Part shown: piece by piece, positions 9,801-53,515 of the stretch | How positions within the stretch are numbered: position 1 is the first letter of the stretch | How the letters are laid out: every line of letters starts with the position of its first letter | NCBI GenBank assembly: GCA_018823175.1 | Contig: JAHJIY010000004.1 | Location: 1,963-65,962 of the forward strand | Direction of reading: 5' to 3' | DNA: 64,000 nt | Source: Pseudomonadota bacterium | GTDB taxonomy: Bacteria > Desulfobacterota > Desulfobulbia > Desulfobulbales > JAHJIY01 | Notes under the pieces: generated by a model | Databases searched by the model: none | The model's input: only the letters and a program-made list of their open reading frames with translations | What the model was told of the DNA's origin: nothing | Program-made: the position numbers and the translations under genes

Positions 9801-12501
9801 CGTGGATGGTATCAATATAAGTATCGTTATCCGCAGTACCTGCCTGATCATGACAGGAGGTACACTCGGCAGATCCCTTAACTACGCCGGCTCCGGCCCC
9901 GCCATCATATGTGGTATGATCAATGATGCCATGAGGGGTATTTGGAACCTTCGGAAGATGACAGGTACGACAATTTACGGTGCCTGTACTGCTGATCGCG
10001 GCACTGACCGTAGCGGTCTCCATCACATTATAAGTACCACTACCCTTCACATAATCATGGCAGACAGCGCAGGAACCATGCTCGGAAAGAACCCCGGCAA
10101 AGGTATTGAGATCATATGTACTATGACAACCGACTCCGCCATTCCAACAACCCTTGACCGCGGTTTGCGAAGTATCACCAACCGAATCATAAAGAACATC
10201 ATGGGTAGTTGCCCGATCATTGGTGGCCATCGGCGAAACATGAATTACATTAAATACGGCATGGCAGTTAACACACTCGCCTCTTCCGGAAGGAATAACC
10301 GCACCGGTAGCCGGATTATGACAGGTTTCACATTTCAGAGCACTATGAACCTCGGTGCCTGCCGTATAGGGAGCAGTGGTCGCTTCATGACAACCAGTAC
10401 AGTTAATGGTATTCGGAGTTAAACCAATGTTTCCGGTTACGCTGGTCGCATGACCCGGATGGGTATGTCCAGCAAAGTAAGCGCCATGACATTCTTCACA
10501 GTTGCCGCCTTTGCCTAAACCGCTACCGTAATCACCGGAAGCGTCACCAACATCACCAGGGGCGCTGCCGGCAATACCGTTAATCCGTTCACCGGTAGTG
10601 GTGCTATGACAGTTGGTACAATCTGCATCATGGGTACCGGCATTTCCGGAACCAACATAAGAAGCATCAATCACATCACCAGCATGACAATTGGCGCAAA
10701 GGGAGGTGGTGACAACTGAGGCAACATGGTCATGGGTATGAGCAGCAAAATAGGACACATGACATTGAATACAGGTGCCGCCAGCACCACCATTAACAGT
10801 GGCATCACCGACATTGGTGATTGTACCGCCGTAACTGGCAGCGTTGGCCGCGCCGTTAACCCGGGAACCATCTACCGTGCTGTGACAGTTCCAGCAGTTA
10901 TTGTTATGAACGGTAACGCCACTGGTATGACAGTTCACACATAGCGCCGTATCATTAATCCCAGTATGAGGATGAATATGGTTATCAAAGTAGGTGGTAT
11001 GACATTCCTGACAGGTGGCAACCGCATTCTGGCCAGGCATGGCGCCTGGCTTAAGCTCGACCGGCGGCGGGGTAACCGTAATATGACAAAGATCGCAATT
11101 ATCATTGTGGACATTAACGGCACTGACGATGGTATCGGCATTTGCCACAGTGTCATGACAAGCGGAAACACACAGAGGGAAAGTAGTCAGGGCGAGATCA
11201 TGAACGCCGGTCAGAACCGGATGGCCGGAATCTTTGCCGGCATGACAATGGAGACAGCTTATCGCCCAATCGGCTGAATGATTGGAACCAGTATTAGTCC
11301 ATGAATAACCCTGCAAAGGACCAGCACCATCAGGATCAACCGCTATCCGAACAAGAACGGTTGGGTTAAGGTCAGGAGTACTGGAGGTATGGCAGATAGT
11401 ACAATCAGCATGTGCGGTCTGAGGATCAGTGACGTAGGACGAATGACATTTGGCACAAGTTAATGCACCAGCAGTTATTATTGCTGGCACCCCGGCATGA
11501 GCCGGAGCACCGCCACCACCAGCAAAAATATTATGACAATCAGTACAAGCCTCGCCAACATGATGGCCAGGAACCGGGTCAGTACCATTAGCAACCCAAT
11601 AATTAGTAGCGACATGACATGACTGACAAAGTCCTTCTGGAGAAGCAGCATTATCTGGGGCATTATCAACAAAACCACCGGTGGTTGCCGGAATTGAGGC
11701 CGGCTCATAAAATTTCACATTCCGGTTGCCGTTGCCATGGGACATGGCACTGGTCATAAACGAACGGATCAACTGACCGTAGAACAGACCGAAGTTTTTA
11801 CCAGAATATAAAGTAGCGTTAACAACACCTTTAACGGTGATCGTCGTCGGGGTTGCGGAGAGAACCTCAAAAACCTCATTGGGGTTGGCCCGGTTGGCAA
11901 CAAACATCAGTCCACGGGAACCGTCTGTTGCCCGAAGTGCCATGGCGGGTGTATCTACGGAATAAGCGCCAGCGGCGCCTTTGGCGTACCAGGTTGTCTC
12001 ATCGGCATATTTGCCGGCAAAGCCGGTATGGGTGATGGTCGTGGTGCCGAGGGGATTGGCTGAGGATTGGCTACCGACATTGAAGTCTATACTGGTGATC
12101 AGATCACCGTTCGCAACCCAAAGACCGGAGTCCGTATTCCAGTCCAACTGCTCCTGGTAATGGGCATTGTGACAATCGGAACATAAGGTAGTCCAGTTTT
12201 CCGTACCGTTGATCTGGAGATCGGAATGCATCGCCTTGATCGGGCCCGGGACCGCAAGAACGGCAAGGACCGGAGAGTCGCCGTGGCAGTTCAGACACAA
12301 CAAGTTTTCAGGTGCAGTGTCAGCAGTAGACGGCGGCATAACTCCTCGAGACATATTGGCAATAAATTTATGACAATGCCAGCATGCGATGCCGCTTGCT
12401 TCGTTGTGAGGCGCATCCATCGAATACGCCTGACTGGTGCCGGTGTTTATTGCCAGTGTGGCCAGCAATAAACCTAAGAATAACGCCAGTTTCTTCATCA
12501 T
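3835..12501 (-). CDS. Giant secreted multiheme cytochrome c (about 2,888 aa, about 63 heme-binding motifs) with a heme-free Ig/cadherin-like C-terminal region
   Basis: The minus-strand ORF is uninterrupted for 8.7 kb. I moved the start to the ATG-ATG at 12501/12498, which follows an AAGGGGGA Shine-Dalgarno sequence. The Sec signal is MMKKLALFLGLLLATLAINTGTSQA. Between nt 12384 and 5923 I counted by hand about 58 CXXCH motifs, 4 CX3CH motifs (CVSACH, CTTNCH, CAVRCH, CTTACH) and 1 CX4CH motif (CITSGCH). The last 690 aa or so have no heme motif and are rich in T, S, N and G, with beta-sandwich-like segments (for example TYTITASDASTATATVFITATANNAPV). Confidence 0.93.
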   Translation of the reverse strand: MMKKLALFLGLLLATLAINTGTSQAYSMDAPHNEASGIACWHCHKFIANMSRGVMPPSTADTAPENLLCLNCHGDSPVLAVLAVPGPIKAMHSDLQINGTENWTTLCSDCHNAHYQEQLDWNTDSGLWVANGDLITSIDFNVGSQSSANPLGTTTITHTGFAGKYADETTWYAKGAAGAYSVDTPAMALRATDGSRGLMFVANRANPNEVFEVLSATPTTITVKGVVNATLYSGKNFGLFYGQLIRSFMTSAMSHGNGNRNVKFYEPASIPATTGGFVDNAPDNAASPEGLCQSCHVATNYWVANGTDPVPGHHVGEACTDCHNIFAGGGGAPAHAGVPAIITAGALTCAKCHSSYVTDPQTAHADCTICHTSSTPDLNPTVLVRIAVDPDGAGPLQGYSWTNTGSNHSADWAISCLHCHAGKDSGHPVLTGVHDLALTTFPLCVSACHDTVANADTIVSAVNVHNDNCDLCHITVTPPPVELKPGAMPGQNAVATCQECHTTYFDNHIHPHTGINDTALCVNCHTSGVTVHNNNCWNCHSTVDGSRVNGAANAASYGGTITNVGDATVNGGAGGTCIQCHVSYFAAHTHDHVASVVTTSLCANCHAGDVIDASYVGSGNAGTHDADCTNCHSTTTGERINGIAGSAPGDVGDASGDYGSGLGKGGNCEECHGAYFAGHTHPGHATSVTGNIGLTPNTINCTGCHEATTAPYTAGTEVHSALKCETCHNPATGAVIPSGRGECVNCHAVFNVIHVSPMATNDRATTHDVLYDSVGDTSQTAVKGCWNGGVGCHSTYDLNTFAGVLSEHGSCAVCHDYVKGSGTYNVMETATVSAAISSTGTVNCRTCHLPKVPNTPHGIIDHTTYDGGAGAGVVKGSAECTSCHDQAGTADNDTYIDTIHGVCGKCHKAPTGGDALWNYSVGGDAPLGGTISEQVNYEGINSGHGGTCVDCHASHNTDFAGAGHNNTNHQTQAAADVITANAAGNCTTNCHDGSSAANIVANTHNVNGCENCHLDTVVTGGTDGRFVDGTGATSRAAAISVGNATLHVINIPSDCNTCHGAYSDFKAAHQVQTHTKVVSTNSAKCTTCHGTTNIITGIHGSKCNICHTNDVTNGTLKGSATNHVFGVASDCLKCHSTLANDFNDASHTVTTDTHATMVTATTGSCEVCHIGNVQTAVHNSCNSCHTDTTGTPDDGTLRSYAATHVKGTAQNCAQCHTDRVNGHASEHNNTDYEDAITQESSATGSVIGQCNTCHAGKGSGGTNFNTNLASAHVGLTIKVADITGVTDGTLAGTAITCGTCHNSAVAAVANTIASAKTDIPANLASCADCHGPRGLPHGSHPATDFPWDAASITACGSCHNNAGTPNVADDIHGVCDMCHVDGSTGRDTAEAGAGLNGIDGDATRATDGVAGAPHSDLTTFNCLTCHSPATSGTAVNAGTIGGIHHDNKTNSPELVANCAVRCHTATSHSATIDNTAIPSTCVGCHTATADTAGTGAPVALGDNGVHDACGTCHTLAVSTDYRGTLVTAPGTKGVNVMSTGTNNCADCHTDAWESMHTTSAPAIHVGLVKTTTSVTCERCHDADGTANAARANVSPFTAALDVHNNITGQFSGDCENCHDVDGGLVTAALAPGMTVVGGECDVCHSAGWQSIHTTSGTNHSLTVANAASDCTTACHVNTAGYLTGITVGASNLLHDACDSCHNTTSGALVGTSVRAPVMPITGANSSNCATCHTTYNSDDSDHAIDHSAGVYENGQVNAPVRTEDVSITGTCNTCHDAMGFTNIYSGHMTRATTSYSGGMVCDSCHNYGGSKLVKADIDLAITNGKRTGSNAAPDCADCHGVRTLPHGGHDIAHFAWDAASIAACGTCHDNVANPDVVKDVHGNVCDTCHINGQTGRDTAKLGANGDGDAREATDKVAGAPHSDLTTFNCLTCHNVGNIVIGGIHHDTATATSNNCVTCHAANASSLSSLAKLPANHLTRVVATGTSCITSGCHIAANVAGTATAMPVSTTDGLVHNACVTCHTFDPTTLAGGLKTAPTTKGVGAMTPGVCTGCHNATPLGNIHHGNANTLSGACEHCHTDTRIANWNVSPYSTNRPGGGYTAPPTHLACEECHVMPKAAKGTGQVASSQNGRTDGWAGNNMTITAFNQGSDAKKTGATGATGAWSAAYPKTTVHTIPNTANQINNWGICIGCHDGTNTAGGVLAPVVNPAHGFPTNIKPTQSYCGSLANYNAGQYLPGRTNFNDISNINYYGDIFRPTGTNPSGNDAVGTAWNSTTWGSTRCGNRTNGSLGSKNAGYYNNNSRANGRTYKGVTMPTAVATPTTDGQLSVPLPWTGAAYNSNTNYPTPTTAVLDTIPAFAQQTPNARVQKNATIDIVAVSSANWLGTTLTVTATVTNGVCTDLTLENGAGNVGFIDTGSCTAEVLNYTYPTDGRTVNVVSSQSDSVDVMAYPITDANVPTPASAGDDGTPVRLTVGSGNLVVTNLATLFANDGGTGITITGVTQPTFGSVGIGLDNVSVNFTGNGTTGNTQFTYTITASDASTATATVFITATANNAPVIGTPPADFNIVESTTKTNIEVTSTVTDNEADQIRVTAFSDNCGGTVNTSIPTAYQAIGQPTNISWTAPAGAQSCTISYTVSDASGSFNDSIVATVTAAPSCGTATVLAGFTQVNDLGTFAVPTGSHTTPGAGDAGRRLLVVQLGMHYGTAGATTKAVTYGGQSLSMVANAGDDVTAQRAQSWIGFCDEACLDAATNSVLDYTTSSTPTEIAMAAIAYDYVNQTNPSPSGGTGVAAYNNTRATTTTVNLPISYAANDFAVIGASSNSTTDCTLDATTSPSYTMTNALTYTEVWQRTNAATGNTTDNITITVGANSRLAGSAVAIQSECNNN
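6338..7000 (-). repeat. Internal 8-heme module, copy B, of the giant cytochrome
   Basis: The segment CADCHGVRTLPHGGHDIAHFAWDAASIAACGTCH...APHSDLTTFNCLTCH...CTGCH has the same order and spacing of heme motifs as copy A, offset by about 1.53 kb. Confidence 0.85.
7855..8528 (-). repeat. Internal 8-heme module, copy A, of the giant cytochrome
   Basis: The segment CADCHGPRGLPHGSHPATDFPWDAASITACGSCH...APHSDLTTFNCLTCH...CADCH is paralogous to copy B at 6338-7000. Long identical peptide strings are shared, including AGAPHSDLTTFNCLTCH and WDAASI.ACG.CH. Confidence 0.85.
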
Positions 12502-13277
12502 GTATCCCCCTTGGTCAATTAATTTAACGTCCTGACTCGACGCCCGTAATAAAAAAAACCCCAATATTCAAGTTGCTGCCTGAAGACGGCCTGGCTCGCT
12601 ATCCCCAAACAACTATAAAAAAAATTAAAAAAGAGGACACCATTAGAACGGTGCCCCAATCAGCGAAACCTGTTGATTTCGCATAAAAATATCCGCTTGT
12701 CGGGGCGGAAATCATTTAAAAGGTATCATTAATATATATAATTTTAAGCAGATATAAAAAAGTCAATTTATACATACTTGTATTCATATTAACACGAGCA
12801 CACTCCTTGCGTCAACTATTTTCTTGACAATTGTCCTTGTTAAATCGATGTGGGAAAAGGGTCAGAAGTCTTTTGTTTATTCTGAAAAAGCAATATTCAC
12901 GCCACAAAAAATAGTGGTTAGCTGACCATAAAAAATTTCAAACCCATTTACGCGAAATATTTTTAAAACAGATAACCAAGAAATCACTTCCATTCAGCCA
13001 CAAAACATGAAAGTCAACCCATTCAAGATGATAGGCATTGATCGCTGACAATTTATTTTATTTTAACTGTTCCAACCATTCGAATAATATTATCTTGACA
13101 TTTTTCGGCACCATAACGTAGCGCAGCTGACAAAAAACGTCAGACCGAAACGAGGTAATACCCTCTCCGTCTTACCCGGTTGCATACTCTTTCATTATCA
13201 TTTATATTAGCACGTTCTATTTTACTAAATAATGACGAACCGACAGAGATTAAGCAACCTGATACCCCAAGGACATT

Positions 13278-13829
13278 ATGGAGCTCAAATCCAGCTCGCA
13301 AATCCAGATAGTTCTCCCCGATAAATGTCAAAGCGAAATAATCGACCACTGTCGACGAAAACTCGCCGGGCAATATCTGAAAGGTGAGGCCCAAGACCTC
13401 AAGGCCTTCGGCCTGATTGCCGGGACCAGGTCAGAAAATACGATCACGGTCAAGCGCTGCATGCCGCTATTGAAAAACGCCCGCTCGATAGATCCTTACA
13501 AGGGTCATATGGACCGGGTCATGACCAAGCACGCCATTCCATCAGAAACACCTCTACATAAAAGAGGATGGGTCGCCGATCCGGAGGAACTGACCGAAAA
13601 AGTAAGTGAATGCCACGCCGCAAAAATAACCCTACTGGGCACTTATCACATGCACCGGGTCGGATGGCAACACGATAAGATTCGTGACACCCCGACCAAA
13701 CTTGACACAATTTTAGGCCATGACAGCCGGATGATCATGTTCATTGTTTCAATGGTCGAACCGGACAAACCGATAATCCGGGCCTTCTTTGAGGGAATTT
13801 GCGAGCAGGAGATTGTAATTATTCCATGA
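13278..13829 (+). CDS. Hypothetical protein, possibly JAB/MPN (JAMM)-like metalloprotease fold
   Basis: 183-aa ORF. LKAFGLIAG followed by GTYHMHRVGWQHDKIRDTPTKLD resembles the JAMM pattern HxH-x(7-10)-[ST]xxD. The resemblance is weak and rests on the motif alone. Confidence 0.4.
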   Translation: MELKSSSQIQIVLPDKCQSEIIDHCRRKLAGQYLKGEAQDLKAFGLIAGTRSENTITVKRCMPLLKNARSIDPYKGHMDRVMTKHAIPSETPLHKRGWVADPEELTEKVSECHAAKITLLGTYHMHRVGWQHDKIRDTPTKLDTILGHDSRMIMFIVSMVEPDKPIIRAFFEGICEQEIVIIP

Positions 13830-13961
13830 TAATGGACGACCAGAACAAATCTGCCGCCCAGGCAAAACATCAACTATAGTTCCCAGATCAACCTTTTACC
13901 GACAGACTCCACCCCGAGGAATCGAGATGGGGTCAGGTTATATAGATAACGGGCCATTAAC

Positions 13962-15164
13962 TTGCTTTACCAAACCATCATCTGCCTTGCCTTCCTGATC
14001 ATGTTTCCTGCGGCCCAATGTTTCGGGGCAAAGATCGAGGGGATAGTCATGTCTCCCAAAGGGCCGGTTACCGGGGCCGAAGTCAGGGCCTACCCCGACT
14101 TTTCCTCTCTGGTCGCCGAGCGCGACGGTATTTTGTCATCGGCCGGGGCCAAAGAAGGTCAATTCACCATGGAACTGCCCAAGGGCAGATATTTCTTTGT
14201 GGCGCGGGGCTCCGAGGCCGGACATGAAATGTTTGCCTACCACGGGATTAATCCGGTAGCTGTTACCCACGACTACTACTGGCTGCCTTTTTTCCTGGTC
14301 GAGGCCAGGGAGGCGCGATGTTCGGTCGGCCCGCAAGGGATCAAGGGCCGGGTGACCTACAAGGGGGAACCACTGACTAACGGAGTTGTCTCGGTTTACC
14401 AATCAGCTGAAACAAGTTTTCGGGGGATGGGACTACTGACCAACACCCTCAACGACGACGGACTGTTCTGGTTTGACCTTGAACCAGGCCCCTATGTGGT
14501 GGTAGCCAGAAAAAGACAGAGCGACCAGGGAATCGGCCCGGTCAAGCGCGGCGATATTTTCTGCTATCCATCCGCCAACCCGATCAATGTGCTGCCGGAG
14601 AGTTACTGTGAGGTCGAAATAAGCTGTTACCCACGGGACAATATGGAGTCCTTTATCGACGAAGGCACGGAAAACCCACGCGGCAGAAAAGAAGAAACCA
14701 GAAGACCAGCCTCGCTCTGGGATGTTCCGGCCCAGGAAGCGGAAGGTACAATGAAACCGCCGGAGAGACTTGCCGTGGTTAGCGGCCGGGTGAGCAACCG
14801 ACAGGATAAACCGCTGGCCGGATTATTCGTTACCGCCTACCCCGCCCTGGGGATTGATCGGTTTCAGATGCATGTTGTCCGGCTAAAGACCGACTACATG
14901 GCCCGAACCGACGAAAACGGCCTATACCGCCTGGAACTTGACCGACCCGAAAAATATTATCTGGTGGCCCGGGAAAAAGTCGGTGAGGCGCCGAACCGGC
15001 AGGAATATTACGGACTATACGAAGGTAACTTCAACCACAGCATCGAAGTGCGGCCGGGAGAGAACTATTCCAGGATCAATATTACGGCTGAGCGCATCAT
15101 GCCTTTTGCCAACGCTATTTCAAGCACCAAAACAAATCAATCACCGGTAGGAAAATTACCATGA
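13962..15164 (+). CDS. Secreted protein with three carboxypeptidase-regulatory-like (CarboxypepD_reg) beta-sandwich repeats
   Basis: 400-aa ORF starting at a TTG (start uncertain) with a hydrophobic N-terminus LYQTIICLAFLIMFPAAQC. Three repeat starts fit CarboxypepD_reg domains: IEGIVMSPKGPVTGAEVRAY, IKGRVTYKGEPLTNGVVSVY and VSGRVSNRQDKPLAGLFVTAY. Confidence 0.55.
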   Translation: MLYQTIICLAFLIMFPAAQCFGAKIEGIVMSPKGPVTGAEVRAYPDFSSLVAERDGILSSAGAKEGQFTMELPKGRYFFVARGSEAGHEMFAYHGINPVAVTHDYYWLPFFLVEAREARCSVGPQGIKGRVTYKGEPLTNGVVSVYQSAETSFRGMGLLTNTLNDDGLFWFDLEPGPYVVVARKRQSDQGIGPVKRGDIFCYPSANPINVLPESYCEVEISCYPRDNMESFIDEGTENPRGRKEETRRPASLWDVPAQEAEGTMKPPERLAVVSGRVSNRQDKPLAGLFVTAYPALGIDRFQMHVVRLKTDYMARTDENGLYRLELDRPEKYYLVAREKVGEAPNRQEYYGLYEGNFNHSIEVRPGENYSRINITAERIMPFANAISSTKTNQSPVGKLP

Positions 15165-16075
15165 GAAATGTCATGTTCTCCGCATTTCTCCTTTGTTTTG
15201 CGCTCATGAGCGCCGGGCAAACTCACGCTCAGCCACTGGTTCTAGGTGATCAGATCATTCGGACCGACACGGTCTGGTCGGGGGAGATCATAGTTGACGG
15301 AGTGGTGGTGGTCGGTCGGGAGGCGACCCTCACGATCAAACCCGGCACCAGGATCCGGTTTAGGAAGAAAGACCTGAACAACGACCAGATCGGCGACTCG
15401 GAGATCCGGGTCCTGGGCAGACTGATCGCCCGGGGCACACCGGAGGAAATCATAACTTTTGCCTCAGCCGAACCGGTCCCGACGAGCAAGGACTGGTCCT
15501 ACGTGATGATCTTCACTTCCGGGCAGGAGAATTTTATCCAATATTGCTCATTCCAGCATGCCTTCACTGGCCTGCAGGTTCATTTTTCGGTGGCCCGCAT
15601 TGCCGACTCGACTTTTACCGATAACTTCGAGGGATTACGTTTCGGCCGTGGTGAATTGACCATTGAGCACAACCGCTTTTCGCATAATGACGTAGGAATC
15701 CGTTTTACCAGAATGGAAGGGCCGGCGACGATCAGGCAAAATGAGATCACCGACAACCGATTGGGGATATTCCTGGTCCCTTCCGGCCAGAATATCATGG
15801 ATTTCTTCGAACCAGACCGGAGCGGCCGGGCCTGGAATACAGGACACTTAATGATCACCGCCAATAATATTTTTAACAACTCATGGTATGATCTCGATTT
15901 AGGTGAAAAACAATTCTGGAACCTGGAGGCCGCCGGAAACTGGTGGGGAACTACCGACCACAACCAGATCAGCGCCAAGATGTTCGCCCATCAACGTGAC
16001 CCGGCCCTGGGCAAGGTTTTATATCAGCCGACCGCCACCGCAAAAATTACCGAAGCCGGCCCTAGAATGAGGTAG
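15161..16075 (+). CDS. Secreted right-handed parallel beta-helix repeat protein (NosD/PbH1-like)
   Basis: The ATG overlaps the upstream stop (ATGA), so the two genes form an operon. The signal peptide is MRNVMFSAFLLCFALMSAGQTHA. PbH1-type repeats are present: IADSTFTDNFEGLRF, IEHNRFSHNDVGIRF, IRQNEITDNRLGIFL and ITANNIFNNSWYDL. Confidence 0.7.
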   Translation: MRNVMFSAFLLCFALMSAGQTHAQPLVLGDQIIRTDTVWSGEIIVDGVVVVGREATLTIKPGTRIRFRKKDLNNDQIGDSEIRVLGRLIARGTPEEIITFASAEPVPTSKDWSYVMIFTSGQENFIQYCSFQHAFTGLQVHFSVARIADSTFTDNFEGLRFGRGELTIEHNRFSHNDVGIRFTRMEGPATIRQNEITDNRLGIFLVPSGQNIMDFFEPDRSGRAWNTGHLMITANNIFNNSWYDLDLGEKQFWNLEAAGNWWGTTDHNQISAKMFAHQRDPALGKVLYQPTATAKITEAGPRMR

Positions 16076-16348
16076 AGAAGGTTGGAGGTTGGAGGTTGAA
16101 GGTTTAAGGTTTAAGGTTGAAGGCTGGAGGTTGGAGGCTGGAGGTTGAAGGTTGGAGGCTGGAGGCTGGAGGCTGAAGGCTGGAGGCTGGAGGCTGGAGG
16201 CTGGAGGTTGAAGGCTGGAGGCTGGAGGTTGGAGGTTGAAGGCTGGAGGTTGGAGGTTGAAGGTTGAAGGCTGGAGGCTGGAGGTTGGAGGTTGGAGGCT
16301 GGAGGCTGGAGGCTGGAGGCTGGAGGTTGAAGGCTGGAGGCTGGAGGT
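16076..16348 (+). repeat. Heptanucleotide tandem array of 39 units of T[GT][GA]AGG[TC] in perfect 7-nt register
   Basis: The array starts on the nucleotide after the TAG stop at 16073-16075. I checked unit boundaries at 16083, 16139, 16202, 16265 and 16321 and all are in phase. 27 of the 39 units are TGGAGG[TC], which contains the GGAGG Shine-Dalgarno core. Confidence 0.95.
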
Positions 16349-16432
16349 TGTTAAGAGTGGAAAACTTGTTACTATTTACTTGTCACTCGTCACTCATCAC
16401 TTGTCATTCGTCACTTGTCACTTGTCACTTCC
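16349..16432 (+). repeat. Second heptad family (..GTTACTA TTTACTT GTCACTC GTCACTC..), 12 units, continuing array 1 in the same 7-nt phase
   Basis: The units read TGTTAAG AGTGGAA AACTTGT TACTATT TACTTGT CACTCGT CACTCAT CACTTGT CATTCGT CACTTGT CACTTGT CACTTCC. Nucleotides 16076-16432 span 357 nt, which is exactly 51 x 7. The 11-mer GTTACTATTTA lies at 16368-16378. Confidence 0.9.
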
Positions 16433-16458
16433 CAAAATAGGCAGATAAGGAATATTGC

Positions 16459-17643
16459 ATGAAAATCACCGAAAAAAACGGTGAACCGGCCCTGATCGTT
16501 GAATACCATGACGAACGGGAAGACTTTAACGGCTGGCTGGTTATCGATGCCCTTGATTATCGGCTCTGTGCCGGCGGCATGCGGGTCCAACCGGGGCTGA
16601 GCCGGGAACATCTGATTGAAATGGCCCGCAACATGACCCGTAAAATGCGGATGGCAAATCTGCGGGTAAACGGGGCCAAATCCGGAATCGACTATGATCC
16701 GGCCAATCCCGGGAAACAGGCCGCCATTACCCGGTTCATGCAGGCGATCAAAAGCCAGATCCAGGAACGTTATTCGATGGGACCGGACCTGAACGTCGAA
16801 ATGTCGGAGCTGGAAAAGGCCGGGCGGGAGATCGGCCTGCCGTCGGTCAAGATGGCGATCGCCGCCGCCCAGAATTGGGAGATGGAATACTACCTGCAAC
16901 GGGCCTCAATTCTCTCGGCAAAAATAGACAATTGGTCTCTGGGCAGATTACGGGCTGGTTACGGGGTGGCCGCCGCAGTCCTTTCGGTGCTGGACTACTC
17001 GGGAATACCACCAGCAAATGCCACCCTGGCCATCCAGGGTTTCGGCACCCTGGCCAAGGCTGCGGCATACGGCCTAATCAGGGCCGGAGCAAAAATAATC
17101 GCCATTGCCGACCGTGAAAAATGCCTGGTCGCCAAGGACGGTCACAGCCTGAATATGGAGCTACTGCTGCAGGTCAAGGGAGGATTACTTCCCGCCTCCG
17201 GCCATGGCGACCATGTTGAGATTTTCGCCAAAGAAAAAATTACCGAGATTAATTGCGACATTCTGGTGCCGGCTGCGGTGGAAAATACGATCACCGGGGC
17301 AATCGCCAGCAACCTGCCGGTCAAAATCGTGGTGCCCGGAGCCAACCTGGCGGTCTCGGCTGAGGCAGTGGAAATTCTATATGAACGCGGCATTATAGTC
17401 CTGCCTGATTTTCTGGCCGGCAGCGGCGGCTCGTTATCGATGGAAGGACTTTTCGGCCCGGCTGAACATCCGGAGCCGCTCGCGGTCTTAAACCACGTGA
17501 AAACCAGGATGGACGAACTGGTCCTTGAGGTCCTTAACCGCAGTATTGCCGCCCGGATCAATCCAACGGAAGCGGCCCTGCTGATCTGCGGAGAACGACA
17601 AAAAACTCCGGGAACAAGACCATACGGCAATCCCGAAGGTTAA
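16459..17643 (+). CDS. Glu/Leu/Phe/Val-type amino-acid dehydrogenase (LeuDH/PheDH-like)
   Basis: 394-aa ORF. LVIDALDYRLCAGGMRV matches the GPAxGGxR-type motif. VNGAKSGIDYDP is the catalytic-Lys block. IQGFGTLAKAAAYGLIRAGAKIIAIADRE is a Rossmann dinucleotide fold. An AAGG ribosome-binding site lies 8 nt upstream of the ATG. Confidence 0.8.
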   Translation: MKITEKNGEPALIVEYHDEREDFNGWLVIDALDYRLCAGGMRVQPGLSREHLIEMARNMTRKMRMANLRVNGAKSGIDYDPANPGKQAAITRFMQAIKSQIQERYSMGPDLNVEMSELEKAGREIGLPSVKMAIAAAQNWEMEYYLQRASILSAKIDNWSLGRLRAGYGVAAAVLSVLDYSGIPPANATLAIQGFGTLAKAAAYGLIRAGAKIIAIADREKCLVAKDGHSLNMELLLQVKGGLLPASGHGDHVEIFAKEKITEINCDILVPAAVENTITGAIASNLPVKIVVPGANLAVSAEAVEILYERGIIVLPDFLAGSGGSLSMEGLFGPAEHPEPLAVLNHVKTRMDELVLEVLNRSIAARINPTEAALLICGERQKTPGTRPYGNPEG

Positions 17644-17685
17644 GAAAAAATCGCTAATTGGCCCATTGTTTCGGATATTATTTTT

Positions 17686-17853
17686 ATTAGGTTGAAGGTT
17701 GAAGGTATAAGGCTTAAGTTATAAGACTGAAGATAAAGGTAGATTTTTTTTAATTTCCTTCAGCCTTCTACCTTCAACCTTCAACCTTCAACCTTCAACC
17801 TTCAACCTTCAACCTTCTACCTTCAACCTTCAACCTTCTACCTTCAACCTCCA
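17686..17853. repeat. Inverted heptad repeat: a degenerate (TGAAGGT)n left arm and an (ACCTTCA)14 right arm
   Basis: The left arm runs 17686-17740 (ATTAGGT TGAAGGT TGAAGGT ATAAGGC TTAAGTT ...). The right arm runs 17756-17853, with 14 phased units ending in ACCTCCA. Nucleotides 17690-17713 (GGTTGAAGGTTGAAGGTATAAGGC) are complementary to 17763-17786 at 23 of 24 positions. Confidence 0.9.
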
Positions 17854-17867
17854 TCAAGAGATCAACC

Positions 17868-19247
17868 ATGCCGGCCCATCCCATAGACTTCCTGATCCAG
17901 GCCAACACCTTCTCCACTCCGGAACTGCTCGCTGTTTTTGACGAAAAAACCAGGTTCCGGCGCTGGCTGCAATTCGAAGCCGCCCTGGCCGCAACTCAGG
18001 GGGAACTCGGCATTATTCCTCGGGAAGCAGCCCTGGAAATAGAAAAAAAGTCAAGCCTGGAACAGCTGGATCTGGCCGCAGTCGCCGAATCATACAAAAA
18101 AAGCCGCAACTCGGTACTGCCGGTAATCAAGGAACTCAGAGCGGCTTGCCAGGGAACGGCGGGAGAATATGTTCATTACGGCGCAACCACCCAGGACGTA
18201 CTGGATACCGGGCAAGCCCTTGAGCTAAAAGACGCAACGCAAATCATCTACCGGGATTTACGCCAACTGGAGCAAAATCTGCTGATCATGGCCGAGCAAC
18301 ACAAATCAACTCCAATGATCGGCCGGACCCACGGCCAGCAGGCACTACCCATCACCTTCGGGTTTAAGGCGGCGATCTGGATTTCTGAAATCCGTCGACA
18401 CATCGAAAGACTTAAAACAATATTTCCCCGGATCATCATCGGCCAACTAAGCGGCGCGGTCGGCACCATGGCTGCCCTCGGCCCGCAGGCCCAGGAAACG
18501 GCACGCAAAACCATGACCCGACTGGGGCTTAATTATTCAGCCATTGCCTGGCATACGGCCCGGGACAATATGGCCGAGACCGCCGGCTTGTTCGCGATGA
18601 TCGCCACCTCGCTTGAAAAATTCGCCAATGAGATATTCGAACTTGGCAAAACCGAGATCGGCGAATTGCGTGAACCGGCTCCGCAATCCGCGATGAGCAG
18701 CAGCACCATGCCCCATAAACGCAACCCGGTCATCTGCCAACGGATATCGGTCCTGGCCAGACATGTGAGGGCCTTAAACGGCGTGGTGCTTGAGGCCATG
18801 GTCCATGAACACGAACGTGACGCACGGGCCTTGTGGGCCGAATCTCTGGCCCTGCCCCAAATCTCTGTTTACACCGGCACCGCTGTCCATTATATTAATC
18901 AAGTTGTGACCGGGCTGGAAATCAACCCGGAACGAATGTTGCAGAATCTTTATCTGCATAAAGAAATGGCCGTCTCCGAATGGCTGATGTTTAAGCTGGC
19001 CCAGCATATCGGTCGGACCAAGGCCCAGAGCTTGGTCCACAAACTGAGTAACCAGACCTACGTTTCCGGCCAAAGCTTAAAAGAACTATTACTTGAAGAT
19101 CAGGAAACCGCCTCGCTGCTTAGCGCCAAGGACATGGACTTTCTTGATCATCCGGAAAAATATACAGGTCAAGCCATTAATCTTACCGACCAGATGATTG
19201 CCGCCACCCGGCAAAAAAGAAATAATGACCCGGAGCTTCTCAAATAG
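17868..19247 (+). CDS. Fumarate-lyase superfamily protein, adenylosuccinate lyase / 3-carboxymuconate cycloisomerase (PcaB)-like, paralog 1
   Basis: 459-aa ORF with the signature SSSTMPHKRNP (GSSxMPxKxN), plus GATTQDVLDT and GRTHGQQALPITFG. Confidence 0.8.
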   Translation: MPAHPIDFLIQANTFSTPELLAVFDEKTRFRRWLQFEAALAATQGELGIIPREAALEIEKKSSLEQLDLAAVAESYKKSRNSVLPVIKELRAACQGTAGEYVHYGATTQDVLDTGQALELKDATQIIYRDLRQLEQNLLIMAEQHKSTPMIGRTHGQQALPITFGFKAAIWISEIRRHIERLKTIFPRIIIGQLSGAVGTMAALGPQAQETARKTMTRLGLNYSAIAWHTARDNMAETAGLFAMIATSLEKFANEIFELGKTEIGELREPAPQSAMSSSTMPHKRNPVICQRISVLARHVRALNGVVLEAMVHEHERDARALWAESLALPQISVYTGTAVHYINQVVTGLEINPERMLQNLYLHKEMAVSEWLMFKLAQHIGRTKAQSLVHKLSNQTYVSGQSLKELLLEDQETASLLSAKDMDFLDHPEKYTGQAINLTDQMIAATRQKRNNDPELLK

Positions 19248-20690
19248 ATGACCCAGTGCCAGTCCCTACATAGCCATATCGTTGACTCACCTTTCTACGG
19301 CCAAGGGTATAGTACAAGAGAGGCCCGCCAGGTATTCTGCGCTTTTCGCAGGCTGCAACGATGGCTGGAAGTGGAGACAGCCCTGGCCGCAAGCCAGGCG
19401 GAGCTAGGGATCATCCCGGCCCATATCCATGTTCAGCTCAAAAAAACCGCCGATTTGGGCCTGATGGACCTTGAGGCAATCAAGGCCGATATCGCCAACA
19501 CCGGACACTCCTTAATCCCTCTGCTAAATGCATGGCAGGGTGTTTCGGATCAGGAAGCGGCAAAATACATCCACTTTGGAGCCACTACCCAGGACATTCA
19601 GGACACCGCCCAATCCCTTGAGTTACGAGAGATCATCTCCATCCTGGAGCGGGACCTACGAATCGTAATTCAAGAACTGAGCCGACTATCGCAAGAACAT
19701 AGTGAACTGGTCATTATCGGCCGGACCCACGGCCAACATGCCCTGCCGACCACTCTTGGCCTGAAATTCGCAATCTGGCTCGACGAAATGCTGCGTAACG
19801 CCCAAAGACTTGCCGAATGTAAAAAACGATTGCTGGTCAGCCAACTGTTCGGCGGAGTAGGAACGATGGATGCCTTTGGCGAAAAAGGTCCTCAATTGCT
19901 TGACTTATTTTCAGCCCAGCTTGGCCTTGCTCCCGCCGCAACCGCCTGGCACACATCCCGGGATCGATTGGCTGAGTTCCTGTCCACCCTGGCAATTATC
20001 ACCGGCACCCTGGCCAAAATAGCCAACGAGATATGCCAACTGGCCCGCGACGAAATCGGCGAACTGGAAGAACCTTTTCACATGGGCAAGATCGGCAGCA
20101 CCACCATGCCCCATAAACGTAATCCTGAATTATGCGAACAGGTAGTGGTCCTGGCCAAACTGGTTAAATCATCGGCCAGCCTGGGTTTTGATGGACTAAT
20201 CAATGAACACGAGCGTGATTATCGGGCCGTAAGGCTGGAGTGGGTGACTCTCGCCGATGCCTCCCTCTACACCTGCGGCGCTTTCGAACTGATGAAGAAT
20301 ATCCTGCAAAAACTTGTGGTGCGCCATGATAACGTGGGCCGAAATCTTGAAAAGTCTGCTTGCCTGATCTCGACAGAAGTTTTAATGTTCATGCTGGGTG
20401 AAAAAATAGGCAAACAGAAAGCGCACCAGCTTTTATACGAATTATCGATGAACTCCCGCAATAATGGACAAGCGTTAATTGATCTGTTGCTGGATAATCA
20501 AATAATCAAAGAAAATTTTGACTCGGCAGCCATTAAAGAAGCGGTTAATCCGGCCCATCATACCGGCTCTGCCTCCCTGTTGACCAAAAGAGTAATCGAC
20601 CGGGCAGAACAATGGTTATCAGAAAACGAAGTAAAAAACGATAAGTTAAGATGTCCGCTTAATGATAATTTATGCGGCTGTCGGGGTTAG
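19248..20690 (+). CDS. Fumarate-lyase superfamily protein, adenylosuccinate lyase / PcaB-like, paralog 2
   Basis: The ATG directly follows the TAG of paralog 1. Motifs are GSTTMPHKRNP, GATTQDIQDT and GRTHGQHALPTTLG. By eye it is roughly 40% identical to the upstream gene. Confidence 0.8.
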   Translation: MTQCQSLHSHIVDSPFYGQGYSTREARQVFCAFRRLQRWLEVETALAASQAELGIIPAHIHVQLKKTADLGLMDLEAIKADIANTGHSLIPLLNAWQGVSDQEAAKYIHFGATTQDIQDTAQSLELREIISILERDLRIVIQELSRLSQEHSELVIIGRTHGQHALPTTLGLKFAIWLDEMLRNAQRLAECKKRLLVSQLFGGVGTMDAFGEKGPQLLDLFSAQLGLAPAATAWHTSRDRLAEFLSTLAIITGTLAKIANEICQLARDEIGELEEPFHMGKIGSTTMPHKRNPELCEQVVVLAKLVKSSASLGFDGLINEHERDYRAVRLEWVTLADASLYTCGAFELMKNILQKLVVRHDNVGRNLEKSACLISTEVLMFMLGEKIGKQKAHQLLYELSMNSRNNGQALIDLLLDNQIIKENFDSAAIKEAVNPAHHTGSASLLTKRVIDRAEQWLSENEVKNDKLRCPLNDNLCGCRG

Positions 20691-20803
20691 ACCGACTCCG
20701 GCTGCATCGGACTAAGTTAAAAATTAACCTGCTCTCGTCCTCTCACTTCTGTTTTTAAACAGATGAATCGATCCGAGGGTCCTAATCAGGAGTATTTTCG
20801 GAC

Positions 20804-21745
20804 ATGGAATCAAGTTTAATGCTCTACGGCGGGGCTATCGTGCTCGGCGCCCTGCACGCTTTTGAGCCGGGACACGGCAAATCAATTATTGCCGCCTATA
20901 TGATCGGAACCAGAGGTCGAGCGATCGACGGGATTATCCTGGGACTAATCGTCACCTTTACCCACACCTTCAGCGTTATTATCCTCGGGATCCTGGCCAG
21001 CATCCTCTCCCAGTCATTTACCGATGACCAGCTTCACACCTGGATGGGACTGTTTTCTTCCATCCTGATTCTCATAGTCGGACTATGGATGCTGAAAGAC
21101 CGCTTAAAAGGGGCCGGCGGGCATAGCCATTTTCACTTTTTCTGCAAAGAACACAGCCATGACCACCATGCCGACCCACATGCGCACGCTCATGGCGCGC
21201 ACGATCATCACCAGCACGATGACCAGCATAGTCACAGCCATGACCACCATGCCGACCCACATGCGCACGCTCATGGCGCGCACGATCATCACCAGCACGA
21301 TGACCAGCATAGTCACAGCCATGATCATCATGACCACATGCATCACGATCACGACCATCATGATCACGACCATGCCTGCGACCACGATCACCACCAGCAC
21401 GAACCAGCCACCTCTGAAGGCGTTCAGCCGGAAAACAATATGTGGCGGCTGCTGATACTCGGAGTATCAGGTGGTCTGGTCCCCTGCCCACCGGCCATCG
21501 TCGCGCTGCTGGCAGCCATTGCCGCCGGTCGGATCGCTGAAGGTCTCACCGTAACGCTTTTCTTCAGTCTTGGCCTGGGACTGGTGATGATGACCATCGG
21601 CGTTGTTCTCTCGCAGGCCGGCAGATTGACCCAAAAAATCAGTGACAACCTTGATCTGGCCAGGAAATTCGGGATATTAAGCGCCGTTATCATCACGATA
21701 TTAGGCTTATACATGTTATTTCACTCATTAAAGAGTATTTTATAA
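20804..21745 (+). CDS. rcnA: Nickel/cobalt efflux protein of the NicO/RcnA family with a very long His-rich loop
   Basis: HAFEPGHGKS is the NicO signature. The ORF has about 6 hydrophobic helices. The central loop of about 95 aa is made almost entirely of H and D residues (HSHDHHADPHAHAHGAHDHHQHDDQ...). Confidence 0.8.
   Translation: MESSLMLYGGAIVLGALHAFEPGHGKSIIAAYMIGTRGRAIDGIILGLIVTFTHTFSVIILGILASILSQSFTDDQLHTWMGLFSSILILIVGLWMLKDRLKGAGGHSHFHFFCKEHSHDHHADPHAHAHGAHDHHQHDDQHSHSHDHHADPHAHAHGAHDHHQHDDQHSHSHDHHDHMHHDHDHHDHDHACDHDHHQHEPATSEGVQPENNMWRLLILGVSGGLVPCPPAIVALLAAIAAGRIAEGLTVTLFFSLGLGLVMMTIGVVLSQAGRLTQKISDNLDLARKFGILSAVIITILGLYMLFHSLKSIL
21152..21313 (+). repeat. Perfect 81-bp (27-codon) tandem duplication inside the rcnA His-rich loop
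   Basis: CACAGCCATGACCACCATGCCGACCCACATGCGCACGCTCATGGCGCGCACGATCATCACCAGCACGATGACCAGCATAGT occurs at 21152-21232 and again, identically, at 21233-21313. An 11-nt start of a third copy follows. Confidence 0.95.
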
Positions 21746-21856
21746 AAGAGAAGGTTAACTGGGCGACAACACTCCAATTATTGTGTAATTCTGAACAGTT
21801 ACCATACGGCAGTAATAAACAGTATTAAAATTTAATTGTTATCAAGAGGTAGTTTC

Positions 21857-22459
21857 ATGTTCGGCAAAAATTTATGTTTATGGCTAATCACCGCTCTGTT
21901 GATTATTTCAGTGGGCAGCGCCCAGGCTTGCGTCGGCAGAATTTTGTATGTAGGAGCGCTCGACACCCCTGATGGCCGGGTGATGGCAGAATTGCTCGTT
22001 CTGCTGATCAACGAACGGACCGGAACCAATGTTAAAATAAGATTTATGGATAATAATGACCAGCTCTACGCCGCTCTCAAAGCCCTTGACGAAAAAGACC
22101 GGATCGACATCATCGTTGAGGATACCGCCAATGCCATGGCCATTCTCAAACTGGAGAGGAAAAGCGATCTTGATGCCGAACTGACCGAGGCCAAGGAAAA
22201 TTATGAAAAGAAACTGGATATTATCTGGCTCAACCCATTTGGTTTTAAAAACAGGGGAGGCAAGGCTAATTCCACGATTAGCGCCCCGCTGGTCCGGCGA
22301 GATGTATTGACCAATTTCCCGTTGCTGCCCAGAGTGCTAAACAAATTAAGCGGGGCCATCTCGGATGAGACTTACACCGATCTGATCTCAAAAGCAAAAT
22401 CAGGCGACAAGGCAAAAAATATTGCCAAGGATTTTCTTAAAGAGAAAAAATTTATTTAA
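21857..22459 (+). CDS. Secreted OpuAC-like (glycine-betaine-type) substrate-binding domain protein
   Basis: I moved the start from the TTG at 21836 to the ATG at 21857, which has an AGAGG ribosome-binding site 7 nt upstream. The signal peptide is MFGKNLCLWLITALLIISVGSAQA. RILYVGALDTPDGRVMAELLVLLINERTG and IIWLNPFGFKN resemble the OpuAC family. The protein is short for that family. Confidence 0.5.
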   Translation: MFGKNLCLWLITALLIISVGSAQACVGRILYVGALDTPDGRVMAELLVLLINERTGTNVKIRFMDNNDQLYAALKALDEKDRIDIIVEDTANAMAILKLERKSDLDAELTEAKENYEKKLDIIWLNPFGFKNRGGKANSTISAPLVRRDVLTNFPLLPRVLNKLSGAISDETYTDLISKAKSGDKAKNIAKDFLKEKKFI

Positions 22460-22626
22460 ATTCTTAATACTCCCGTCGGATCAGACTGACACTGGATTTT
22501 TAAAAATTTCCCAGACAAATTTCATTATCAAAACCCACCAGGTGTGAATAGCACGATGCGTTTAAGATTTAATTTACTGCCGCCGACAACCGCCAGGATA
22601 ACTCAGGCAAATAAGGCCCGGGCCTG

Positions 22627-23184
22627 ATGATTTACGGCAACAATCAAAAAATTATCAGCACCCTGACCCTGCTACTCGCTTTAATCTTGCCTGGTATTGT
22701 CGAGGGCCACATCAGCGACAAATCCATGCCTCCTTCAGTCATGGAAATGGAATGCCGGATCTACCTGGAATTTAATCCCGGCGACACCAAGACCAGGAAC
22801 AAACTTGGGATGGCCCTGCTACAGCAGGAAAAACTTATAAAAGCGGAAAAGGAATTCAGGACCGTTCTGGACACTAAACCAGATGACTTTGATTCGTTAG
22901 ATGGAATTGGCCTGATCAGAAGCCGGCAAAAAGAATACTCGCAAGCGATAAAACTTTTTAAATCCGCCATTGAGATCCGAACTGACGACCCAATGGTCTA
23001 TTTCCACTTGGGCCAGGCCCTGGAGAATAACGGCCAGTTGGCAGAGGCCCTTGAGACCTACCAAAAAGCGGCTAAAATAAACGCGCAACAGCCAGCCTCC
23101 GAGACTAAAGAGACAAACAGCTCGGAAATCACCGACGCGATCACAAACGTCAGTTCAAAGCTGGCAACTACCACCAAGAAATAA
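22627..23184 (+). CDS. Secreted TPR-repeat protein
   Basis: 185-aa ORF with a hydrophobic N-terminus and three TPR-like units (KLGMALLQQEKLIKAEKEFRTVL, DGIGLIRSRQKEYSQAIKLFKSAI, YFHLGQALENNGQLAEALETYQKA). Confidence 0.7.
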   Translation: MIYGNNQKIISTLTLLLALILPGIVEGHISDKSMPPSVMEMECRIYLEFNPGDTKTRNKLGMALLQQEKLIKAEKEFRTVLDTKPDDFDSLDGIGLIRSRQKEYSQAIKLFKSAIEIRTDDPMVYFHLGQALENNGQLAEALETYQKAAKINAQQPASETKETNSSEITDAITNVSSKLATTTKK

Positions 23185-23199
23185 TCCAAAGGTTTGAAA

Positions 23200-24148: not shown

Positions 24149-24183
24149 AGTGAAAAGTAACGAGTAAATAGTAACGAGTTTAC
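24149..24183. repeat. Dispersed heptad element (AGTGAAA AGTAACG AGTAAAT AGTAACG AGTTTAC), reverse orientation
   Basis: The 24-nt string AGTAACGAGTAAATAGTAACGAGT at 24156-24179 is identical to 53356-53379. TAAATAGTAAC lies at 24165-24175. Downstream, a degenerate CATTCGT CGTTGTT CCGCTCA stretch looks like a decayed GTCACT arm. Confidence 0.8.
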
Positions 24184-50965: not shown

Positions 50966-51266
50966 TTTAGGTTGAAGGTTGAAGGTTGAAGGTTGAAGGT
51001 TGAAGGTGGAAGGTTGAAGGTGGAAGGTGGAAGGTGGAAGGTGGAAGGTTGAAGGTTGGAGGTTGAAGGTTGAAGGTGGAAGGTGGAAGGCGGAAGGTTG
51101 AAGGTTGGAGGCTGGAGGCTGAAGATTGGAGGCTGAAGGTTGGAGGCTGAAGGTGGAAGGTTGGAGGCTGAAAGTGGAAGGTTGGAGGCTGAAGGTTGGA
51201 GGCTGAAGGTTGGAGGCTGAAGGTTGGAGGCTGAAGGTTGGAGGCTGAAGGTTGAAGGTGGAAGTG
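50966..51266 (+). repeat. Heptanucleotide tandem array of 43 units ([TG]G[AG]AGG[TCG] type) in perfect 7-nt register
   Basis: The array starts 5 nt after the TAG stop at 50959-50961. I checked phase at 50973, 51001, 51127, 51246 and 51253. Units include TGAAGGT, GGAAGGT, TGGAGGC and TGGAGGT, so it belongs to the same family as 16076-16348. Confidence 0.95.
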
Positions 51267-53336: not shown

Positions 53337-53348
53337 CAACTATGTTAA

Positions 53349-53446
53349 AGTGACTAGTAACGAGTAAATAGTAACGAGTAAATATCAACGTGTTCCCCAC
53401 TCGTCACTCGTCACTCGTCACTTGTCACTTGTCACTTGTCACTTTG
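53349..53446. repeat. Palindromic heptad element: an AGTGACT AGTAACG AGTAAAT AGTAACG AGTAAAT arm facing a (CACTCGT)3(CACTTGT)3 arm, 14 units in phase
   Basis: The left arm starts at 53349 and the right arm at 53398, an offset of 49 nt (7 x 7). The arms are approximate reverse complements (AGTGAC / GTCACT). TAAATAGTAAC lies at 53365-53375. Confidence 0.9.
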
Positions 53447-53515
53447 CATCTCCATTGTTCCCGTCCCCTGAGATGGGTTTTACTCCACTGCCGGCCGTCG
53501 AGACCATTTTATGCC

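Follow-up and report, generated by a model that had tools for sequence, protein, structure and literature searches.

The DNA analyzed here is a 64-kb stretch (the window) from the genome of an uncultured Desulfobulbales bacterium, related to sulfate reducers. It carries at positions 16076-16348 an array of 39 tandem heptanucleotides, located between a gene for a NosD/beta-helix-like protein and a gene for a dehydrogenase of the ELFV (Glu/Leu/Phe/Val) family. With moderate confidence, this array can be regarded as a long simple sequence repeat (LSSR) with a heptanucleotide unit, of the same kind as the short tandemly repeated repetitive (STRR) sequences of cyanobacteria, the GGGNAYT repeats of Xanthomonas and Nostoc, and the TAACTGA repeats of Beggiatoaceae. 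It would be carried passively in an operon transcript, where its chief effect would be to uncouple two cistrons that formerly overlapped.

Under this explanation, replication slippage (a hypothesis taken from the literature) and unequal duplication of several units at a time would have generated the array in this Desulfobulbales lineage, and the site of expansion would have been the very short interval that follows the NosD-like stop codon in a conserved operon. Within the polycistronic transcript the product is probably a G-rich, C-poor spacer that is simply carried along, with the separation of two cistrons that overlap in relatives as its main consequence. The rule of orientation and position that such arrays follow, described below, would then be attributed to a polarity in how they originate or are tolerated, and not to a role of the copy at 16076-16348. 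What stays the same, both here and in other genomes rich in arrays, is the 7-nt period, and not the motif, the orientation, or the gene context.

The array and its operon junction

Direct parsing and Tandem Repeats Finder (TRF) both resolve the 273 nt into 39 in-register heptads without indels (0%), beginning on the base after a stop codon. The preliminary description of this DNA, made from its letters, had given exactly this anatomy, including the 27 TGGAGG[TC] units and the location of the array on the same strand as both flanking genes, which are on the + strand. The individual units are TGGAGGC (14), TGGAGGT (13), TGAAGGC (6), TGAAGGT (3), TTAAGGT (2), and AGAAGGT (1), or, by class, 27 TGGAGGY, nine TGAAGGY, two TTAAGGT, and one AGAAGGT. 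Variation is almost confined to column 3 (G in 27 units, A in 12) and column 7 (C in 20, T in 19), and the variants are transitions that have been propagated among units. The sense strand of the array contains 142 G and only 20 C residues.

Superimposed on the heptad period is a longer one. TRF reports period 7 with 39.1 copies, and periods 21 and 28 score better; the string of unit types (xAAattbABAaBBBbBBBAbBAAbAAabBAABBBBAbBA) has a higher-order pattern of ~4 units, with one TGAAGG unit about every fourth. No exact internal repeat exceeds 55 nt, and the two copies of this longest one are offset by 119 nt (17 units). The other long array of the window, at 50966-51266, is composed of TGAAGGT, GGAAGGT, and a 14-nt TGGAGGC-TGAAGGT higher-order repeat. 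These 21/28-nt and 14-nt higher-order repeats, together with the 55-nt internal duplication, argue for satellite evolution by local multi-unit duplication.

A chance origin can be dismissed, since 273 nt is far beyond any random run and a sliding autocorrelation over lags 4-12 along the 64 kb finds the tandem arrays of the window at lag 7 only. Three of the ~20 listed intergenic spacers of at least 60 nt stand out at this lag; a fourth spacer (53337-53500) and the short array at 24156 were detected by TRF and by direct reading. The preliminary description had presented the array as a single object, which is indeed real, but the window has at least five loci with heptad arrays, of which it is one. 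These belong to two motif families, A (TGRAGGY) and B (TYGTCAC), and some of them form inverted pairs (Table 1). All lie in non-coding junctions between co-oriented genes, except the array at 24156, whose neighbors are convergent, and none is in a divergent promoter region. What the arrays share is therefore the period rather than the Shine-Dalgarno (SD) core, given that the genome also expands TYGTCAC, which is not SD-like, and that TGRAGGY occurs at 17757-17853 with the C-rich strand as sense.

The history of the junction is suggested by a relative (L126; GCA_018814305.1) that has the same 13-gene order as the window. This order comprises a gene for a 187-aa open reading frame (ORF) product, then CarboxypepD_reg-like, NosD-like, and ELFV dehydrogenase genes, two ADSL-like lyase genes, and NicO, OpuAC-like, TPR, and PhnD-like genes, and it continues on the other strand with HHH_3, LeuA, and aspartate-kinase genes. 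The NosD-like and ELFV genes of the relative overlap by 4 nt (ATGA), whereas 383 nt separate them in the window; the following ELFV-ADSL junction measures 28 nt in the relative and 224 nt in the window. Both of the enlarged junctions consist largely of heptads. Only the last 2-4 residues fall outside the alignment of the orthologous NosD-like proteins of the window and L126, and therefore the gene is intact rather than truncated. No lag-7 arrays occur in six syntenic loci of relatives. Since the same junctions in L126 are tight and lack heptads, the arrays of the window are recent, lineage-specific expansions inside otherwise tight operon junctions. For the ELFV dehydrogenase, a protein search returned no homologue above 62% identity, and the closest ones carry the labels Desulfobulbaceae or Desulfobulbales.

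Neither a sigma-70-like promoter nor an intrinsic-terminator-like site was found on the + strand of the NosD-ELFV spacer, which is weakly consistent with co-transcription of the array as part of the operon RNA. No Rfam family reaches its gathering threshold anywhere in the 64-kb window. A coding function was rejected: all three frames give the same heptapeptide, WRLEAGG, broken by the TGA of the TGAAGG units, and ORFs do not exceed 70 aa. The long antisense "ORFs" that run through the arrays are an artefact of a C-rich strand that is stop-free in every frame. The reading as a mobile element was also set aside, as the flanks of the 16076 and 50966 arrays, compared by eye, have no similarity and no terminal inverted repeats.

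It is highly improbable that the array, or its length, stems from misassembly of short reads. The 273 nt do exceed a typical short read, and an independent Logan assembly of run SRR2540949 breaks inside the array. However, this assembly reproduces both edges with 0 mismatches: a 13-kb contig ends at window position 16122, 47 nt into the array from the left, and a second contig starts at 16321 and spans the last 28 nt on the right. Both edges are thereby confirmed and the array is present in the reads, the inner 198 nt being given by the metagenome-assembled genome (MAG) only. In this MAG, GCA_018812655.1, the window is part of contig JAHJDI010000045.1. Furthermore, all k-mers longer than 55 nt are unique within the array, which therefore has a single assembly path, and lag-7 TGRAGGY arrays also occur in finished isolate genomes such as NZ_AP023087.1 and NZ_CP115149.1.

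Neighboring features of the window

Two distances supplement the coordinates in Table 1. The family-B array that follows the 16076-16348 array stops 28 nt short of the ELFV dehydrogenase ATG, and 14 nt separate the array at 17757-17853 from the ADSL-like gene, whose ATG is at 17868.

Table 1. Heptad arrays of the window and the gene features that adjoin the 16076-16348 array
Feature	Position	Strand	Remarks
TAG stop codon of NosD/beta-helix-like gene (ORF 15161-16075)	16073..16075	+	array begins on next base
Family-A heptad array (subject of this report)	16076..16348	+	39 units T[GT][GA]AGG[CT]; G-rich strand is the sense strand of both flanking genes
Family-B array	16366..16430	+	9 units TYGTCAC, first two degenerate (TTGTTAC, TATTTAC); 17 nt 3' of 16076-16348 array
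ELFV dehydrogenase-family gene	16459..17643	+	downstream of array
Degenerate family-A arm (AGGTTGA...)	17689..17743	+	left arm of inverted heptad pair, ELFV-ADSL junction
Family-A array, opposite orientation (CCTTCAA on + strand)	17757..17853	-	14 units; right arm of inverted pair
Short reverse-complement family-B array (AGTAACG/AGTAAAT)	24156..24179	-	3.4 units; between convergent genes
Second long family-A array	50966..51266	+	~43 units; begins 4 nt past TAG stop of amine-oxidase-like gene
Degenerate reverse-complement family-B arm (AGTAACG/AGTAAAT)	53355..53390	-	left arm of second inverted pair
Family-B array (CACTCGT/CACTTGT)	53398..53444	+	~6.7 units; right arm of second inverted pair; between SNF-transporter and AsmA-like genes

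The two inverted pairs (spacers 17644-17867 and 53337-53500) are predicted to form long hairpins, and the RNA of the minus strand, which is antisense to the flanking genes, gives markedly the more stable ones. The predicted energies for the minus and plus strands are -77.4 versus -54.6 kcal/mol and -52.7 versus -41.7 kcal/mol, respectively, in what are two cases only. Minus-strand folding is better because the degenerate arm carries G-to-A changes on the + strand, such that the mismatches become G-U pairs.

The gene cluster at 13278-24093, which encodes the ELFV-type dehydrogenase, two ADSL-like proteins, and the NicO-like, OpuAC-like, TPR, PhnD-like, NosD-like, and CarboxypepD_reg-like proteins, is conserved across Desulfobulbales contigs (L126, L123, and L128) and looks like a small-molecule or metal-related pathway. 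In both the window and L123 it adjoins a gene for a giant multihaem cytochrome. The window version (ORF 3835-12564, - strand) is ~2,900 aa long and has 58 CxxCH haem-binding motifs and weak MtrC/MtrF-type Pfam matches; the counterpart in the same place in L123 has 1,676 aa. Another relative within the Desulfobulbales, L128, has no heptads, and carries at its positions 20144-20365 an inverted pair of arrays with an 8-nt period, TTAGGATT/TTAGGGGT facing CCCTAATA/CTCCTAAA, with ~130 nt enclosed. Tandem repeats with longer units are present in the window as well. Inside the NicO-like ORF (20804-21745), the segment at 21152-21374 holds 2.2 copies of an 81-nt repeat that are 98% identical, followed by 15/21-nt repeats; its units are rich in His codons (CAC/CAT) and may encode a His-rich segment. 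At 601-750 there are 2.1 copies of a 72-nt repeat that are 83% identical.

Placement of heptad arrays and competing explanations

Arrays of this type are widespread. A scan for (TGRAGGY)x4 in one genome per GTDB species gave at least 120 matches, and those listed include Acidobacteriota, Gemmatimonadota, Planctomycetota, Chloroflexota, Cyanobacteria (Moorena), Pseudomonas/Stutzerimonas, Bacteroidota, Desulfobulbaceae, and others. Most arrays among the matches listed have 4-19 units, and the two long arrays of the window (39 and ~43 units) are unusually long. The ~0.95 Mb surrounding these listed matches contain 172 lag-7 arrays, ~57 of them with other motifs, compared to at most 14 at any other lag from 4 to 12. 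TGRAGGY is not uniquely favored, given that in viral contigs (TRGGGAY)x4 is as frequent (33 loci, versus 30 for (TGRAGGY)x4), with (TGGRAGY)x4 present at seven.

Several observations weigh against purely passive carriage. Within the 16076-16348 array, columns 4-6 (AGG) are identical in all 39 units. More importantly, arrays of this type are not placed at random with respect to genes. The preliminary description had proposed to ask whether such runs favor the coding strand and the proximity of stop codons, and this check, run across genomes rather than within this genome, gave a positive answer. Arrays were masked, because their stop-free C-rich strand creates false ORFs, and ORFs of at least 120 aa were then called greedily by length, which is crude gene calling with unambiguous stop positions. 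Arrays were scored for a true stop codon of a sense-strand ORF no more than 30 nt from the 5' end of the G-rich strand, or for the mirror configuration. The post-stop sense placement outnumbers its mirror by 26 to 5 in a set of genome loci (L003-L122, from the matches listed) and by 23 to 3 in an independent set of metagenome loci (L198-L317), or 49 to 8 combined (p = 2.7e-8). The bias is present in both GGAGG-dominated (17 versus 3) and GAAGG-dominated (32 versus 5) arrays. On the 5' side of the G-rich strand, the median gap is 21.5 nt to a sense-gene stop and 40 nt to an antisense-gene start, whereas the 3' gap is ~110 nt whatever gene end is faced; the 5' gap is the shorter one in 99 of 149 TGRAGGY arrays. 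Viral contigs gave counts of 4 versus 2, where phage genes are probably short relative to the 120-aa ORF threshold. All three family-A arrays of the window follow the same polarity rule that is seen across phyla. It was also considered whether an array might itself supply the stop codon through TGA, TAA, or TAG variants at unit positions 1-3, and this was ruled out: the adjacent stops have no fixed phase relative to the heptads and comprise 18 TAA, 17 TAG, and 16 TGA codons.

This replicated polarity is the chief argument for something beyond passive carriage, and selection on an RNA- or DNA-level property is possible, since a neutral process does not obviously predict such placement. A comparable hint comes from a Bacteroidales MAG (JTS-AC371; locus L021, and also L028), in which uvrC-like and polyprenyl-synthetase-like genes converge on a 363-nt spacer (2843-3205) pieced together from five or more different short tandem arrays: GCAGTTT, GTGACAA/GTGACGA, the 8-mer CCTAGAAG/CCTAGAAT, TCGTGCAG, and CAGCCTC. 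This spacer carries families A and B in the same relative order and orientation as the window, despite coming from an unrelated phylum, which hints at motif-specific recognition or at shared motif preferences. Also, although the array at 16076-16348 most likely has no dedicated sequence-specific function, this judgment is drawn from an absence of evidence. The placement rule itself has a precedent. G-rich heptamers of Xanthomonas and Nostoc show the same preference for downstream positions on the coding strand, and they are under-represented between divergent genes (PMC4692102). Hence, the rule for TGRAGGY is an extension of a published observation to many more phyla, and not a new rule.

Two physical properties of the array invite functional explanations. 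Its units resemble SD sequences, as the preliminary description had pointed out and as predicted duplex energies bear out when the anti-SD is assumed to be canonical (ACCUCCUUA; there is no rRNA in the window). On this assumption TGGAGGY pairs at -9.3 to -9.9 kcal/mol and TGAAGGY at about -3.4 kcal/mol, compared to a median of -5.5 kcal/mol for the regions upstream of 27 window genes, ~90% of which are weaker than TGGAGGY. The native SDs of the window are mostly AAGG/AGGA-like and resemble the TGAAGGT units. The 27 GGAGG and nine GAAGG sites might accordingly bind the anti-SD of 30S subunits or of post-termination 70S ribosomes, and the array could serve as a sponge, a standby platform, or a holding track that tunes re-initiation downstream. 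Its start at a stop codon would suit this role, as would the tendency of TGRAGGY arrays across phyla to abut sense-strand stops and to avoid the antisense orientation there. Regardless, SD mimicry is an unlikely explanation. Between the end of the array and the next start codon lie 110 nt that include another array (16366-16430); 47 of 244 TGRAGGY arrays lie between convergent genes, where nothing is translated downstream; and the same polarity is found at the starts of antisense genes and for G-rich heptamers that are not SD-like (PMC4692102). Moreover, TYGTCAC is expanded in this genome as well, some of its TGRAGGY arrays have a C-rich sense strand, and the orthologous operon of relatives works without the array. 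The second property is the GG-A-GG-YU spacing, which fits a two-tetrad G-quadruplex (G4) in the ViennaRNA model, again as had been suggested from the letters. The 273-nt sense RNA has a modeled energy of -146.6 kcal/mol with two-tetrad quadruplexes and -68.1 kcal/mol without them, whereas the C-rich antisense RNA is predicted to be essentially unstructured (-2.1 kcal/mol). As far as such calculations can tell, SD likeness and two-tetrad potential are both real properties of the sequence. Strings of two-tetrad quadruplexes (of the GGAGG tetrad/hexad type) in the RNA, or a quadruplex plus R-loop on the non-template DNA, might protect the mRNA upstream from 3' exonucleases, or might hinder ribosomes, RNA polymerase, or replication. 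In a variant of this proposal, R-loops that form where the transcript becomes ribosome-free after the stop could drive expansion and explain the polarity. The strong G over C excess and the replicated G-rich-sense placement right after stops, an R-loop-prone orientation, agree with a structural role. Related G-rich heptamers also form G4 in vitro, but those far better G4 formers showed no gene-regulation effect (PMC4692102). In addition, the window array has GG runs only, for which two-tetrad quadruplexes are marginal; TGAAGGY-dominated arrays, with 5-nt loops and poor G4 potential, have the same or a stronger placement bias; and family-B arrays have no G4 potential. A structural role is thus unlikely.

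A multivalent binding array, in which a protein that reads heptads or GGA (CsrA-like, cold-shock, S1-domain, or other) is titrated or recruited to the operon RNA, is quite improbable. It would be in keeping with the invariant AGG core, with the 27 GGA-containing units, and with the predicted non-quadruplex fold, in which GGCU:GGCU pairs leave the three bases between them, including GGA, in internal loops. It would also accommodate the joint occurrence of families A and B in the unrelated Bacteroidales MAG, and a precedent exists in the ribosome, S1, Csp, and CsrA binding that has been hypothesized for TAACTGA repeats (PMC4679880). However, the many different heptad motifs of array-rich genomes would require many binding proteins. 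No CsrA, cold-shock (CSD), or Hfq signature is encoded in the 64-kb window, which is uninformative for the whole genome. The likeness to sponge RNAs of the CsrB/RsmY/RsmZ type lies in the many GGA motifs on one RNA. Those RNAs come from discrete small RNA genes with their own promoter and terminator, and they present GGA in hairpin loops; in the window there is no Rfam covariance-model match of the CsrB/Rsm type, and no promoter- or terminator-like site of its own was found for the array on the + strand. Even less probable is the slippage-prone contingency (phase-variation) locus raised in the preliminary description, in which changes in unit number would switch a neighboring gene. Long simple sequence repeats (SSRs) are intrinsically slippage-prone, and in Haemophilus phase variation is mediated by heptad repeats located in 5' regions (PMC12721329; PMC8262952). 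The location of the present array speaks against such a role, as it is in no ORF and between no promoter elements, but between a stop codon and the next cistron. Gaining or losing 7 nt at a time in an operon spacer of 383 nt would not obviously turn expression on or off, and the flanking genes are metabolic rather than for surface antigens. Finally, TGRAGGY arrays in general might be convergently recurring functional "post-stop" elements that hold terminating ribosomes, protect upstream mRNA, or insulate cistrons from Rho, which likewise seems unlikely. If it were true, the polarity, with the 5' end of the G-rich strand at the gene boundary, would reflect mechanism and not tolerance, and the acting agent would be a G-rich, C-poor, anti-SD-binding RNA, or an R-loop or quadruplex formed once ribosomes leave the transcript.

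Taken as an LSSR that is passively carried, the array at 16076-16348 is by itself one more example of a known and unexplained class of repeats. Why bacteria amplify 7-nt units, and whether the resulting arrays act, has been a question since at least the 2007 LSSR survey, as it is cited in PMC4679880 and PMC4692102. The present locus offers a natural before/after pair, with overlapping genes in a relative and hundreds of heptad bases here, which could be used to measure the effect of such an insertion on operon expression. The placement rule, with the G-rich strand as sense and a start within ~20 nt of a stop, provides a handle on mechanism, by setting polarity due to R-loops or translation termination against selection.

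Comparison with known repeat classes

The motif TGRAGGY is not named in PMC4692102, PMC4679880, or PMC2700814, although no literature search was aimed at the motif string. The preliminary description knew of no account of this motif either; the over-representation of heptameric SSRs and the occurrence of G-rich heptamers downstream on the coding strand are already published (PMC4692102; PMC4679880). When the literature was searched for heptamer repeats in cable bacteria or Desulfobulbales, the term "cable bacteria" occurred in none of the papers returned.

TAACTGA repeats, known from marine Beggiatoaceae, some Cyanobacteria, and Bacteroidetes (MacGregor 2015; PMC4679880), resemble the arrays of the window in being intergenic heptamers in operons and in the recurrence of one motif in unrelated phyla. 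They differ in that a set mostly comprises 2-6 copies placed just ahead of a start codon and lacks SD likeness, whereas the arrays of the window are stop-adjacent and SD-like. The 16076-16348 array has another unit, abuts a stop codon, and is separated from the next start by 110 nt.

Parallels also exist with the GGGAATC repeats of Xanthomonas and the GGGGAYT repeats of Nostoc, which are G-rich, mostly intergenic, sometimes arranged as inverted pairs, and in some cases present as long arrays in operons, such as a 26-mer between pecE and pecF (Rehm et al. 2015; PMC4692102). No regulatory role was identifiable for them. Their G3-G4 tracts form stable G4, and four units are preferred (PMC4692102), whereas the units of the window array number in the tens and have an SD-like core with no G-tract longer than GG. 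A G4 repeat of the GGGNAYT type has at least four G-tracts of at least three G, and the GG runs of the window units permit two-tetrad models only.

The comparison with STRR sequences that was drawn in the preliminary description is apt. The three tandem heptanucleotides of Calothrix PCC 7601, as cited in PMC4692102, likewise represent several heptad families amplified in the intergenic DNA of one genome. With TGRAGGY and TYGTCAC, the window also has more than one family, in a host whose flanking proteins match Desulfobulbaceae/Desulfobulbales best and not heterocystous cyanobacteria. The motifs differ from those of STRR1-3.

Overall, the array qualifies as an LSSR. In most genomes, LSSRs with heptanucleotide units outnumber those of any other unit length, and a form of slippage tied to the footprint of the polymerase has been proposed as the cause (Mrazek 2007, as summarized in PMC4679880 and PMC4692102). 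Neither the TGRAGGY motif nor an uncultured Desulfobulbales host is among the examples in those two papers, and 39-43 units are at the long end of the range. In other respects the correspondence with LSSRs, as these sources portray them, is close: a tandem 7-nt unit beyond chance length, an intergenic location, a phylogenetically sporadic occurrence, a favored period of 7, and slippage as the proposed origin. As expected for the class with 5-11-nt units, the array at 16076-16348 consists of head-to-tail units without indels, and its length is above that attributable to chance.

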